Origin: a virus
Taxonomy: Duplodnaviria > Heunggongvirae > Uroviricota > Caudoviricetes
IMG/VR virus record: IMGVR_UViG_2663762839_000010
Strand: one strand, 5' to 3'
Length of the DNA stretch: 4,402 nt
This document shows positions 1 to 4,402 of this stretch, piece after piece. The notes under the pieces are model-generated. The model had not been told where the DNA came from. It searched no databases and was given only the letters and a program-made list of their open reading frames with translations. The first letter of the stretch is position 1. Each line of letters starts with the position of its first letter. Both the position numbers and the translations under genes were made by a program.

Positions 1-473
1 GAGTGAATAAACTGTACCGTCCGTTAACCCTTCCGGCTTATTAGCAGAATATGCTGGTGACGTATGAATCGTCACGCTGGCATTACTGGTATAATCCCAT
101 TGAATATTTACACCAGTCGCATAATTTCCGATTGCAACGTAAATATCGTAAGTATCACCAGATGTATTGACCCAGGCAAAATTTGTAAACCCTGTCGATG
201 TGCGCTGCCATAAAGCACCAGTAATCCCCTTCGGATTACCATTACCTGCACGTAAAACAAGTTCAGATATACCTGCCTGTTGAGGTGGCCCCACGTTAAA
301 TCCAGCGCCACCAATCAACGTAATTGAAACAACAGAACTCGCCTGTGGCATGGTTACCGTTGCTAATTTGAACCAACCAGCACCACCGCTGAATGACATT
401 GTTGTTGAGTTAAGCGTACCAATATCTTTCGGCGTCAGTGTTATATCCGCTGAAAGCGCCTTACCATTCACCT
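1..473 (-). pseudogene. Phage side-tail-fiber-like protein fragment; 5'-truncated, no start codon, continues beyond the left edge of the window
   Basis: Minus-strand frame is open from 561 to 1 with no stop. Translation from about 474 downward reads KVNGKALSADITLTPKDIGTLNSTTMSFSGGAGWFKLATVTMPQASS...GDTYDIYVAIGNYATGVNIQWDYTSNASVTIHTSPAYSANKPEGLTDGTVYSL, which is Gly/Ser/Thr/Asn-rich like the distal part of enterobacterial phage tail fibers (recognised from memory, not searched). No ATG with a Shine-Dalgarno in frame; the 5' side is occupied by the W-like gene in another frame. GC about 44% versus about 60% in the neighbouring terminase genes. Confidence 0.5.
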
Positions 474-680
474 TACGGGCAGAAGGTACCCGGGATGCCC
501 CCGTCGTCGTGTAATCAGAGCCGCAAGGCGGCGCTCCCACTCCTGCCGTCCCTGCCGGATCTCAGATAAGTTTTCCATGGTCATCTGCTGACCATTAAAG
601 GTGACGGATTTTCCGTCCAGCACCGCCATTTCAGCTTCCGTATAACGCTGAATCATGGCTTCGATATCATTCTGGTTCAT
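468..680 (-). CDS. Head-tail joining / head completion protein, lambda gpW-like (70 aa from the ATG at 678-680)
   Basis: Track ORF 468..686 (72 aa, MVMNQNDIEAMIQRY...ITRRRGHPGYLLPVR). C-terminal RRRGHPGY resembles lambda gpW ...QRRRGPAGFYV (from memory), and size and position after the large terminase match. GGAGG (revcomp of 687-691) sits 6 nt upstream of the second ATG (678-680), so that is the likelier start. That ATG overlaps the terminase TGA (677-679) as ATGA. The last few codons may be altered by the junction at about 470-490. Confidence 0.65.
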   Translation of the reverse strand: MNQNDIEAMIQRYTEAEMAVLDGKSVTFNGQQMTMENLSEIRQGRQEWERRLAALITRRRGHPGYLLPVR

Positions 681-2776
681 AACCATCCTCCGGAAGTCAG
701 CCAGGGGTTAACATCGTCAGTTACTGTTTTCTTCCGTTTTTGTTTTTTAACAGGCGTGGATACCGGTTCCGGTGAGGATGACGGTTCGGTACTGTCCTGG
801 ACACACTCCAGCCAGGTCTCCCGGCTCGCCCACTCCGGTGCATCCGGCCAGCGGATCTTTTCGTATCCATGCAGAATGACCAGAGCCTAGGCATACACCA
901 TCAGGTCAAAAGCTTCGTTGGCACCGCGACCCGGCTTACTCCATTTCCCGTCACTGCTCCGCTCTTCATACGTCAGTTCGTCGTAAAACCAGCTCCCCAG
1001 CTAGTCAGGGAAATGCACATAGCCTGGACCTGGCGAGTCACGCCATAACGCGTTATTCACCCGGTCTTTCAGGGCATCCGTCTGAAGAAGCCAGAGCGGC
1101 ACATCACCTGCGGCCTGCGCCCGGCGGCCCGTTCGTCCGGTGTTATCAGGGAATGTACGGCTGATCAGTTTTGCGCGCCGGATGCTGTCACCCTTAAACA
1201 GGTAAATACGTTTACCAAGGCCATCACGACGGCAACGACGCCAGAATTTATAGGCATTATCAGTGACCCCGTCTTCACCGCCGGAGTCCACCGCCATTGC
1301 CATCAGTCGCATTTGTTGAGAAGGATCGGAGGCCAGCGGCCAGCTTTTATGAAAAACATCCGTCAGCAGGACATCCCAGTCTTCCGGATAGCTGGCCGGA
1401 TCAATTCGCTGGCTCTCCCCGTCGCAGTCACTGCGCAATGACTGCGTGATGTTGTAACGATCAATAATCCAGCGTTCGCCACGACTGCCATAGCCCGTTA
1501 CCTGAACCACAAAACAGCGATGACGTCCCGCCTGCACATCCACTGTCGCCACAAGGAAATTAACGCCATCCGGCACACTGCGGGAAGGAACTGGCTCTGC
1601 CCGCTGCTCAAGCAGTTCACTTTTTCGTTGCTCCATGCTGGCACGAGGAAGATAAGGCAATCCCCAGTCGGTGTTGATAACCGCCCTGAGTGTTTCTTCG
1701 CTTCCTGTCGCTTCATACTCCTGTTCTGCAGTCAGTAATTTGTAAACCAGTTGCGCCCAGGTCTGATACGCAGCAGCTGGCCCTTCCATCCAGAAACTGG
1801 CGATACGGGAGCGGCGCGGTTCACCGGAAACGTTGCCGTTACGATCAATGACCTGACCTTCACGCAACCAGACTCCTGCACTATTGAGCTCACGCTTTTT
1901 CTCCGCAGTGATAATGCCGCTGCAGTGCGGGCAAAGTAGATACGCCGCCTCACTGGCTTTAAAGGGATCCGGTTCATTACGGTAGCCGGTCATGGCATCC
2001 ATGGCTGGCTGAAAATATTCACCGCAGTGCGGACATGACCAGTACCAGCGGCGGCGGTCACCACGATTGTAAAGGGAAAGAATACCAGTCGTCGGTGGCG
2101 CTTCATGAGGCGACTTACGTCGCCATTTGCTGTCGCAGATGTCACGTCCCGGCGAGCTCTCCACCAGAGTCATCCCGGCGGACATAAATGTGGTGGTACG
2201 TTTTGAGGCCAGGGAGAAACCATCACCCTCGCTGTCGATATTCTCCGGAAAACGGTCGTAATCGGTTAAGGCGACAAACCGGTAATCCGACGACGACATA
2301 ATGTTGACCGAGGGCCAACCAATTTTAAGGAACGAGCCATCCCTGAACGTCTTATCATGGACATTATTGTCGTTACGACGTGGACTCATTCTTTTCTTTA
2401 CCGCCGCACTGCTTCTGAACGTTCTGTCGAGGCGCTTTTTAGAATGCTCGCGGGCCTTATCTTCGGTCATCTGCACAACGAGCATGTCCGAAGGATCGCA
2501 AACGATGGTATAGACAATCCATCCATCGATCAGACCAATGGTCTTCCCTGTTTGCGCAGGACCAACAAAAATCACCGCATCGTATTCACGCGATGCCAGG
2601 CAGTTCATGGGCTCAATGATGTAGGGTGTCAGTTCAGGATCCCATGGCACCGAGTTACCAGCCCCCTTGGGAACACGCATGAATTTTTTAACAGCCTCCG
2701 AAATCGGCATGCGACGTGGTGGGGAAAATCCTGCCGATATGTCCCTTCCCAAATTTCGGGCTGATGAAAAACCCAT
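677..2776 (-). pseudogene. Terminase large subunit (lambda gpA family), about 699 codons, interrupted by two in-frame amber TAG codons at 1001-1003 and 887-889
   Basis: Track ORF 1001..2776 (591 aa) has a P-loop VGPAQTGKT, paired CPHCG...CPHCS cysteine motifs (lambda gpA has ACPHCGEE...YLCEHNAC), and ATVDVQAGRHRCFVVQVTGYGSRGERWIIDRYNI resembling gpA AGIDSQLDRYEMRVWGWGPGEESWLIDRQII. Start ATG 2774-2776 is preceded by AGGAGG that overlaps the TAG of the upstream gene. After the TAG at 1001-1003 the same frame continues for 37 codons (LGSWFYDELTYEERSSDGKWSKPGRGANEAFDLMVYA), hits a second TAG at 887-889, then continues 69 codons (ALVILHGYEKIRW...KKQKRKKTVTDDVNPWLTSGGWL) to TGA at 677-679. NEAFDLMVYA matches my recollection of the gpA C-terminal region NEALDCFVYA. 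Confidence 0.85.
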
Positions 2777-2784
2777 TATTCCTC

Positions 2785-3312
2785 CTAGAGACTCTCTCCT
2801 TCCTCATCAGGAATTAATTCAGCAGCACAAGCCTCGTAGGATTTTTCCTGAAGAGTGTATCGCAGGTCATCAATGGCCTGCTGTACAACGCCGACGGCCT
2901 GAGGAGTCAGGGCGCAATCGCGTTCAAGAACATCCGGAATTGTCTCCAGAACCTGGACGACAGCCTTTCTCATGGACGAATAGACGATGACTACTTCATC
3001 AACGGGGATGAGTTTTCGCTGCTCCTTTTCCAGCTTGATCCTTTCATTTTCAGATTGGTACCAGTCCTTTCTCTCTTTCGGCTCCATACGGGATGGATCA
3101 TGAACAGAGTCTGCTGCCTCATGCTTCACACTAAACAGGGCTGGCCCGACATGCTGCAGGGCGTAAACGGGGTTCCCCCTGATAGTCGCAGCCACAGGAG
3201 TGTTGGCCGCGAGGAGCCGTTTTTTTACTGTGTCCCGGTGAAGCCCAAAGGCCTCAGCGATTTTAAAAACACTCCAGTAATAAGCATCACCGATCCCGCT
3301 CACATTTGACAT
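2785..3312 (-). CDS. Terminase small subunit, lambda Nu1-like with N-terminal HTH; alternative in-frame starts at 3322-3324 and 3340-3342
   Basis: Track ORF 2785..3342 (185 aa). The segment SVFKIAEAFGLHRDTVKKRLLAANTPV aligns with the lambda Nu1 N-terminal HTH KKQLADIFGASIRTIQNWQEQGMPV (from memory). The coiled, charged middle (PKERKDWYQSENERIKLEKEQRKL) and about 180 aa size fit. ATG at 3310-3312 (MSNVSG...) has GGAG 6 nt upstream, so it is the preferred start. Stop TAG 2785-2787 lies inside the large-terminase SD, indicating translational coupling. Located about 185 bp from the putative cosN. Confidence 0.75.
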   Translation of the reverse strand: MSNVSGIGDAYYWSVFKIAEAFGLHRDTVKKRLLAANTPVAATIRGNPVYALQHVGPALFSVKHEAADSVHDPSRMEPKERKDWYQSENERIKLEKEQRKLIPVDEVVIVYSSMRKAVVQVLETIPDVLERDCALTPQAVGVVQQAIDDLRYTLQEKSYEACAAELIPDEEGESL

Positions 3313-3328
3313 AAGCAACTCCATCTGG

Positions 3329-3508: not shown

Positions 3509-3874
3509 CGTGGCAGGGACCCCCACTGGGAGGACCCGACAGCCTGACAACCGTGACGAGCATCTGAAACAGAGCTTTACATAATGGCATGGGGATAATT
3601 CAGAAGGACATCACAGCATGCCCACACAAATTAGTGTGAGTGTCCTGTTTCTTACTACGCGCAGGACTGACGAGCATGAGGGGAAAATACGCGAACCGAA
3701 ATGCCTTATCTTCAGAAATGCAGCCGGCATCCGAACTGGGCGATATTGTAAATTCACCTAAATACGAGGCATTGCTGTAGTTGAATTGCAGTACTGTATT
3801 AGCCTTACAGTGACAGAATACGATATTGACTCTGTCACTTGTGAAATGGTCAGAATGGTTAGCAGTTATGGTGA

Positions 3875-4081
3875 TCAGTCAACCACCAAGGAATAATCCT
3901 TCGTATTCTTATCGTGCTTTACTAACGCGGCCTCAATTGCCCTGAATGCTTCCAGAGATACTTGATGTTCTATACATGCAATTACAACATCCGGGTAACC
4001 CATCGAAATGGTGCTATTAAGCATAGTTTTTACACGAACCTGCTCCTGGGAGGGGGCATCAGTGTATTGATCTTTATGCAT
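3875..4081 (-). CDS. Hypothetical small prophage protein (68 aa)
   Basis: Track [75 protein letters not shown] lies 8 nt upstream of the ATG (revcomp of 4090-4093). Same orientation as the packaging genes, just upstream of cos. I have a vague recollection of similar small proteins next to Nu1 homologs in E. coli cryptic prophages but cannot confirm it. Confidence 0.45.
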
Positions 4082-4295
4082 TTTGTCGCTCCATTCGTTT
4101 GCTCTTCACTTGCGGCTAAAAATATAACGTCAAATCACTCAGCATGAAAGAGTGAAAGTTTCAGCGCGTTTCCCTTACATAATCTGTCGTTTGTATTCTC
4201 TTCAGGCATACCGGAAAGACTAGGTATTGTCACACAACCAATACCATCGACAATCGAGATTTATATCTATTCGGTAATGTTTAAATATAACAAAA

Positions 4296-4311
4296 CCCCG
4301 TAAAAACGAGG
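4296..4311 (-). terminator. Weak candidate intrinsic terminator (minus strand)
   Basis: Minus-strand RNA would form CCUCG / UUUUUA loop / CGGGG (5-bp stem with one G-U pair) followed by UUUUGUUAUAUUU (4281-4295). The stem is short, so confidence is low. Confidence 0.2.
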
Positions 4312-4402
4312 TTTATCAACGCCAACGCGCGGCGTCAGCGAAATTCGCCTGGCGCTACGTTTTAAATCGAACGATTCGCTGCTACGCCACTTTAAGGATA
4401 CC

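Follow-up and report, generated by a model that had tools for sequence, protein, structure and literature searches.

The window considered here, a stretch of 4402 nt, corresponds over its full length to contig CDRI01000407.1, one of more than 400 in the draft assembly GCA_000946855.1; the context of its locus was read from independent assemblies. It carries a cos site, the genes of the small (terS) and large (terL) terminase subunits, a head–tail adaptor gene and the 3' part of a side-tail-fibre gene (stf'), and all its phage genes are on the minus strand (Table 1). The canonical phage gene order is kept, and essential morphogenetic genes are either deleted (18.2 kb) or inactivated (terL, by two nonsense codons). 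The window is very probably a fragment of a Qin-type defective lambdoid prophage in ordinary mutational decay. This class of objects, the defective lambdoid prophages of the Qin/DLP12 type which keep cos and a small-terminase gene, has long been known.

Table 1. Positions of the features of the window (aa, amino acids; E, expectation value).
Feature	Position	Strand	Remarks
3' part of the side-tail-fibre gene (stf')	1..471	-	open to the contig end; from about residue 631 of the 1030-aa reference Stf
Head–tail adaptor gene, lambda W position, 70 aa	468..680	-	PHROG 118 "head-tail adaptor", E 6e-35
Deletion junction	485..492	.	8-bp microhomology GGTACCCG, present both inside stf and at the 3' end of the adaptor gene
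Large terminase pseudogene (terL), gpA type, 699 codons	677..2776	-	Pfam GpA_ATPase 2e-80, GpA_nuclease 5e-67
Small terminase gene (terS), 175 aa, intact	2785..3312	-	Pfam DUF1441 (PF07278), PHROG 141 "terminase small subunit"
Putative cosB-equivalent region, 184-nt AT-rich spacer between cosN and terS	3313..3496	-	by analogy with lambda
cosN equivalent, GGGCGGGAGCGT	3497..3508	-	184 nt upstream of the small-terminase start; GGGCGGCGACCT in lambda
cosQ-like heptamer GGGTCCT	3531..3537	-	23–29 nt upstream of cosN; 24–30 nt in lambda
YbcW-like late-region gene, 68 aa	3875..4081	-	PHROG 657, E 5e-48
Terminator-like hairpin	4293..4314	-	end of the similarity to the prophage
ycjX fragment, 86 nt, core chromosomal gene	4317..4402	+	from about nt 286 of the gene, sense direction

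The cos site and the packaging genes

The genome records of phages cdtI (NC_009514/AB285204) and Tritos (OV696610) start exactly at position 3508 of the window (minus strand) and are 98.5–98.8% identical to it over the next 724 nt, through the small-terminase gene. The right end of the cdtI record (...GGGTCCTTCCGGTGGGGTGGCCTGCCACG) is the sequence found just upstream of cosN in the window. The two ends of lambda, ...ACGGGTCCTTTCCGGTGATCCGACAGGTTACG and GGGCGGCGACCTCGCGG, are aligned to ...GTCGGGTCCTCCCAGTGGGGGTCCCTGCCACG and GGGCGGGAGCGTCGCGG, respectively; eight of the twelve cosN positions are identical to those of lambda, as are the flanks ACG and CGCGG. All related loci keep the 20-mer ACGGGGCGGGAGCGTCGCGG, with one copy per locus. 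The heptamer upstream of cosN is that which we take to be the cosQ of lambda. The spacer between cosN and terS is 98.5% identical to the left end of cdtI and co-varies with the terS allele; a search for repeats in this putative cosB returned short, weak repeats only, and no binding sites were identified in it. The elements cosQ, cosN, putative cosB and terS have the order and orientation that they have at the left end of cdtI. Judged by its sequence, the cos of the window is therefore genuine and intact, as the initial annotation had proposed from the letters of the window. A similar variant, GGGCGGCGCGCT, has been listed as the inferred cos of the mEp213/LLS phages, which have Gifsy-2-like heads (PMC12315714).

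The small terminase was also correctly described as intact: its product, encoded between cos and the gpA-type terL, is identical to that of the prophage of E. coli SC480 (see below) and shares 174 of 175 residues with gp01 of cdtI. Its match to DUF1441 has an E value of 5e-44 (150 bits, for a cut-off of 35.1) and that to PHROG 141 an E value of 2e-64. BLASTP detects no similarity between this protein and Nu1 of lambda.

The large terminase had been reported as disrupted, and the comparison with the SC480 copy gives the reason. There are no indels between the two genes and four substitutions, all of which are non-synonymous: R75Q, R421C and two amber mutations, W592stop (TGG to TAG at 1001–1003) and E630stop (GAG to TAG at 887–889). 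The frame is broken at codons 592 and 630 of 699 and the nuclease profile is matched only up to position 235 of 294, so that the cut-off product would lack the last quarter of this profile and the C-terminus. The gene thus reads as a pseudogene, predicted to be dead. The E630stop mutation also occurs in an independent metagenome scaffold (L002), in which W592stop is absent, and is therefore not a sequencing error.

The small gene which follows terL had been called W-like. It occupies the position of the lambda W gene and belongs to the PHROG 118 family, which supports the name, but its product has no similarity to lambda W by BLASTP.

The deletion junction

A near-complete lambdoid prophage of E. 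coli SC480 (L001), adjoining rspB, served as the reference for the substitutions and for the deletion. It consists of an integrase, an excisionase, the dicA/dicC/dicB region, the antiterminator Q, lysis genes, cspI and gnsB, then the 68-aa gene, the DUF1441 protein, the large terminase, the 70-aa gene, the portal, a fused protease/capsid, tail genes, stf and tfaQ. This prophage is possibly defective too: its tail-tip gene J is annotated as frameshifted (L001 4456–7870).

Positions 485–4316 of the window match L001 20001–23831 with 99.77% identity (8 mismatches and one single-base indel), and positions 1–492 match L001 1340–1831, in the interior of the gene of the 1030-aa Stf, with 99.8% identity. 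At the junction of the two segments, 18.2 kb of the reference are missing, which comprise the portal, protease-capsid and head completion genes, the tail genes, and 60% of stf counted from its 5' end. The deletion fuses the last codons of the adaptor gene to the interior of the side-tail-fibre gene; the length of the adaptor is kept and its last five residues are changed from RLARF to LLPVR. The head and tail genes are thus truly deleted, rather than simply lying beyond the ends of the window, and the description of the window as a remnant which lacks portal and capsid genes holds.

The identical junction is found in at least 15 independent assemblies (L002–L006 and L012–L021), several of them with contigs of 50–340 kb. 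The exact 70-aa fusion protein occurs in 177 index blocks of a public collection which comprises draft and metagenome assemblies, and the contigs concerned reach 0.2–1 Mb. The stf/adaptor junction is present in none of 5426 complete RefSeq E. coli genomes, and exact-pattern scans returned it from none of the species-representative genomes. The lineage which carries the junction seems to lack closed genomes (177 draft or metagenome blocks against 0 of 5426 complete genomes). In relatives such as L013, stf' is annotated as an open reading frame of 394 aa (Collar/Phage_fiber), whose GTG start overlaps the stop codon of the adaptor gene.

Relatives carrying the same junction

Ten loci which have the identical junction and 10-kb flanks were compared (L012–L021). 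In eight of them, the upstream side consists of an antiterminator (where the flank reaches it), a holin, a ydfR-like gene, a lysozyme, an Rz-like gene, cspI, gnsB, the 68-aa gene and cos, and the downstream side of terS, terL, the adaptor fusion, stf' (394 aa), tfaQ, pinQ, ynaE/ydfK, ydfJ, ydfI, ydfZ, rspR, ydfG and dcp. The DNA downstream is 99.5% identical to that of E. coli K-12 from stfQ to ydfG, which is the locus of the Qin cryptic prophage. This locus (ydfJ–rspB) is confirmed for L012–L014, L016–L021 and the SC480 prophage, whereas the right end of the window joins ycjX and the context of L015 differs. L012 lies at the Qin locus too, but has lost stf' and most of tfaQ (at about 10655). 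In L015 (1–20213), the same cos-terS-terL-adaptor-stf'-tfa block and junction have other flanks: a different lysis cassette and an N6/N4 methylase upstream, and a GIY-YIG protein, a Dcm/EcoRII restriction-modification pair and an insertion sequence (IS) downstream.

"Packaging-module-only", the term used in the initial annotation, is therefore too narrow, since eight of the ten longer junction-bearing contigs embed the module in a defective prophage at the Qin locus. An inspection of the flanks had been recommended, for an integrase and a second cos on the one hand and for a conventional prophage on the other. Carried out on the relatives, it revealed in most of them a prophage, although a defective one, at the Qin locus, and in none of them an integrase or a second cos within 10 kb.

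Decay continues in these relatives. A deletion of 1882 nt in L014 (about 9146–9291) has removed terS and the 5' part of terL, leaving cos in place, L005 has a 1-nt indel which shifts the frame of terL, and an IS3-like end is present in L002 (1–51) at the position equivalent to 3857 of the window. The split of terL in L002 was rejected as a mutation, the runs of N being a scaffolding artefact. Overall, terL is dead in at least three independent lineages and terS is lost in one, which is roughly proportional to the lengths of the two genes.

Alleles exchanged next to cos

Most of the relatives which share the junction carry another allele of the packaging genes (variant A). They match the window at 96–100% from 1 to about 1650 and at 98% from 3469 to 4316. 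Between about 1650 and 3468 the allele is different: terS encodes 164 aa, 42% identical to the product of the window, and the 5' part of terL has 62–76% DNA identity. One of the breakpoints falls some 35 nt after cosN begins; beyond this point, the spacer cannot be aligned with that of variant A.

In the comparison of the packaging specificities of lambda and phage 21, cosB, terS and the N-terminal part of terL are expected to co-vary. The swapped block runs from the putative cosB through terS into the N-terminal part of terL, and has the appearance of a cassette for packaging specificity, exchanged by recombination near cos. Because the same junction carries different cosB-terS-terL(5') alleles in different strains, the alignments indicate that homologous recombination, for which one breakpoint adjoins cosN, moves segments between these remnants and functional phages. 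The position of this breakpoint agrees with what has been described for crosses between lambda and the defective prophage DLP12, in which recombination occurs most often right at cos, and the nu1 homologue and the lysis genes of DLP12 then work in lambda (PMC3945230).

Decay or selection

The comparisons show the following history of the window. Prophages of the cdtI/SC480 kind combine a head of the Gifsy-2-like type, in which protease and capsid are fused, with a large terminase of the gpA type and a small one of the DUF1441 family. One such prophage underwent illegitimate recombination across 8 bp, losing 18.2 kb from the portal gene to the middle of stf. The parts left were cosQ, cosN, the putative cosB, both terminase genes, the adaptor gene and the 3' part of the tail-fibre gene. 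Afterwards, in this lineage, terL gained two amber codons and two missense changes. The gene terS has remained unchanged, and a divergence of 0.2% represents too little time for this to need a special explanation.

The initial annotation had suggested that the retention of an intact small terminase next to cos, despite decay elsewhere, would fit selection. With 8 differences in 3832 nt between the window and the SC480 prophage, about 1.1 changes are expected in the 528 nt of terS, and the probability of observing none is about 0.33. The intactness of terS is therefore not evidence of selection, and the argument has no statistical weight.

Several observations weigh against a history of decay alone. 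Both terS and a 700-aa terL are intact in nine of the ten long junction-bearing loci, which have the other allele. The ratio of non-synonymous to synonymous polymorphism (pN/pS) is about 0.05 in pairwise comparisons of terL between relatives (25 synonymous against 5 non-synonymous differences), and L012, L013, L015 and L021 differ by 1–2.5% yet keep terS and the 700-aa terL open. Lastly, the flanks of the window itself end with the contig, and its junction with ycjX is unexplained.

Taken alone, the low pN/pS suggests purifying selection on a head-less remnant. It was rejected as a decisive proof, because the divergence between the relatives drops near the junction (terS and the 5' part of terL diverge 4–5 times more than the segment which begins in the 3' part of terL and crosses the junction into stf') and because the replacement of a whole allele is seen in the window. 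The core DNA which flanks the junction-bearing loci differs by about 1%. Given this drop around the junction and the allele swap evidenced by the window, the differences rich in synonymous changes are most simply, and probably, explained by alleles imported from functional phages. In situ selection on cos and terS is conceivable but unsupported. A published survey has found that terminase genes are preferentially lost, rather than kept, in incomplete prophages (PMC7744054).

A broader form of the idea, which draws on the intact terS and 700-aa terL of the relatives and on their low pN/pS, is that head-less remnants of the Qin type which keep cos and a terminase are maintained by selection. We consider this to be very doubtful. 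If it were true, such remnants could turn the proheads of infecting lambdoid phages to their own use, or sabotage them. They might package the adjacent chromosome or themselves, or compete for the phage packaging machinery as a form of defence, and the window would represent a lineage that has just lost the function.

Mobilisation by helper phages

The existence of a compatible helper, which the initial annotation presupposed, is realistic. The free-living phages cdtI, Tritos and HannyBb have a near-identical cos and small terminase (98.5–99% identical), and the same module is present in 453 of 5426 complete E. coli genomes (about 8%). Since the cos of the window is intact in sequence and compatible phages exist, it should be open to binding and nicking by the terminase of a phage of matching specificity, whether this phage is co-resident or infects the cell. 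Given the order of the genes at the left end of the phage genome (by analogy with lambda and homology with cdtI), packaging would run from cos through terS, terL and stf' to tfaQ, pinQ, ydfJ and beyond. As there is no second cos for termination, the outcome would mainly be a double-strand break which stimulates recombination, with at most rare or abortive one-sided packaging of the adjacent chromosome; the transfer of a discrete element would not be expected. Passive cutting of the cos by a compatible phage is plausible. If chromosomal cos sites of this kind are cut by compatible phages, they could be local hotspots of recombination or transduction, on the ydfJ–dcp side of Qin.

None of the relatives has a second cos within 10 kb on either side. 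No integrase is found in the window, nor within 10 kb in the relatives, where the invertase pinQ is the only recombinase; in the SC480 prophage, the integrase is encoded at the opposite extremity, at a distance of about 20 kb. A replication module, a helper-responsive regulator and interference genes were found neither among the open reading frames of the window nor among the neighbouring genes of the relatives. The analogy with cos-type satellites is therefore not supported, since the integrase, the replication and interference genes and the second cos are missing.

In its full form, the initial annotation proposed a helper-mobilisable, satellite-like element, whose cos and small terminase would be kept by selection for packaging into the particles of a co-resident lambdoid phage. 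This is very unlikely. The cos is genuine and terS is intact, but the retention of terS gives no statistical signal (as calculated above), and the relative L014 keeps cos with terS deleted. Active phages of the same specificity exist, and their module is as widespread in complete E. coli genomes as stated above, but such a helper would supply its own TerS and make the resident copy redundant, and with terL dead the resident TerS cannot redirect packaging alone. Islands whose only packaging element is cos are mobilised by lambda and phi80 in E. coli (PMC6092414). However, packaging from cos needs two co-oriented cos sites or replication into concatemers, whereas the relatives have one cos per locus within ±10 kb. 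The window is also without integrase, primase or replication, and helper-interference genes, and its neighbours in most relatives are lambdoid late genes and the Qin locus. The retention of cos and terS in three separate deletions (those of the window, of K-12 Qin and of DLP12) is in favour of selection, as is the low pN/pS of the relatives, but imported alleles explain the latter.

It is less improbable, although still rather unlikely, that the cos acts as a passive start for packaging in situ, where the terminase of a growing compatible phage cuts and then packages, in one direction only, the chromosomal DNA alongside (tfaQ, pinQ, ydfJ, ydfI, dcp and beyond), giving particles akin to those of lateral transduction or of the "defective, one cos" (doc) type as a by-product, without selection on the remnant. 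In lambda, doc particles arise from prophages that do not excise. Lambda-type packaging which lacks a terminal cos has no clean finish, and its particles are mostly non-infectious, which speaks against this possibility. The order and orientation of cosQ, cosN, cosB and terS are those of the left end of cdtI and the downstream genes are known from the relatives, both of which are consistent with it. Cutting of the cos of a defective prophage by the lambda terminase is also the explanation that has been offered for the recombination hotspot at the cos of DLP12 (PMC3945230). On the other hand, the contig was assembled through the module without a break, hence the source strain probably has no second, near-identical module.

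A chimeric contig, assembled wrongly from the short reads of a draft, is highly improbable as an explanation of the whole. The window is a contig of 4402 nt in an assembly of more than 400, its last 86 nt are from an unrelated core gene joined without microhomology, and neither of its two junctions is found in any complete E. coli genome. However, the stf/adaptor junction recurs in the independent assemblies listed above (at least 15, with several contigs of 50–340 kb), its 8-bp overlap is too short for a de Bruijn misjoin, and E630stop recurs in an independent metagenome scaffold. The suspicion is thus left for the ycjX end only.

Comparison with known systems

A close parallel in design is the Qin prophage of K-12. 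It occupies the same locus as most of the relatives, with tfaQ-pinQ-ydfK-ydfJ-ydfI 99.5% identical and gnsB, cspI and lysis genes upstream, and it has the same organisation, in which cosN is followed by a small-terminase gene (nohA) and by a deletion which runs into the side-tail-fibre gene (truncated stfQ). Its cosN, which reads ACGGGGCGGCGACCTCGCGG when its flanks are included, is identical to that of lambda and is located 173 nt upstream of the Nu1 homologue nohA, itself directly adjoining the truncated stfQ. In contrast to the Nu1-type nohA and the lambda-identical cosN of K-12, where the deletion that removed the head and tail genes begins right after or within nohA, the window has a DUF1441 small terminase and a cosN with 4 deviating positions out of 12, and it retains terL as well as the adaptor gene. 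Since the end-points of the two deletions differ, they are independent events. The cosN of K-12 Qin corresponds to L023 8541–8560, that is MG1655 1,636,540–1,636,559, where no feature is annotated in the record.

DLP12, also from K-12 (cos, nohD), is likewise a defective lambdoid prophage which keeps lysis genes, cos and homology to terminase genes. Its cos and nu1 homologue can be used by lambda after recombination, and the junctions cluster at cos (PMC3945230). It differs from the window by its locus and its lambda-like packaging allele.

From cos through terS and terL to the adaptor gene, the phages cdtI, Tritos and HannyBb and the SC480 prophage are collinear with the window, with 98.5–99.8% DNA identity. 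The difference is that they have portal, protease-capsid and tail genes after the adaptor gene, whereas the window has the 18.2-kb deletion and two ambers in terL.

The cos-type phage-inducible chromosomal islands (EcCICFT073, SaPIbov5) and cosmids resemble the window in that they have a helper-compatible cos without capsid genes (PMC6092414). Once excised, EcCICFT073 and SaPIbov5 are replicated as concatemers, in which cos is repeated (PMC6092414). These islands differ from the window in being discrete elements of about 10–15 kb with their own integrase, regulator and replicon, none of which is found in the window or in the 10-kb flanks of the relatives, which consist of ordinary lambdoid late genes.

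On their own, a cos and an intact small terminase beside a decayed packaging module are not the signature of a satellite, since they arise repeatedly when prophages decay in E. coli, as is also seen in K-12 Qin and DLP12. The window is a worked example of this recurrence. It is also of some modest value in two other respects. The exact cosN and cosQ of the cdtI/Tritos/HannyBb packaging type can be read and located in chromosomes, and the swapped cosB-terS-terL(5') alleles at a common deletion junction illustrate cleanly how, in nature, defective prophages recombine with functional phages next to cos.

Other features of the window

At the right end of the contig, the piece of ycjX is joined to the phage DNA right after the terminator-like hairpin, without microhomology, and this junction was not found in representative genomes or in complete E. 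coli genomes. It is either a real rearrangement or an assembly artefact. In the gene order of K-12, both sides of the junction read toward increasing coordinates, an orientation which would fit a tandem duplication or a circle junction spanning the region from ycjX to Qin; the ycjX piece is short, however, which would be equally compatible with a chimeric read or with a graph overlap of k-1 bases.

The window contains no tRNA and no match to an Rfam family, and a scan of it for promoters gave results not above chance. The 68-aa gene, annotated as YbcW in some records, has an 81.5% DNA match to lambda 47919–48090 and is conserved directly upstream of cos in lambdoid phages.

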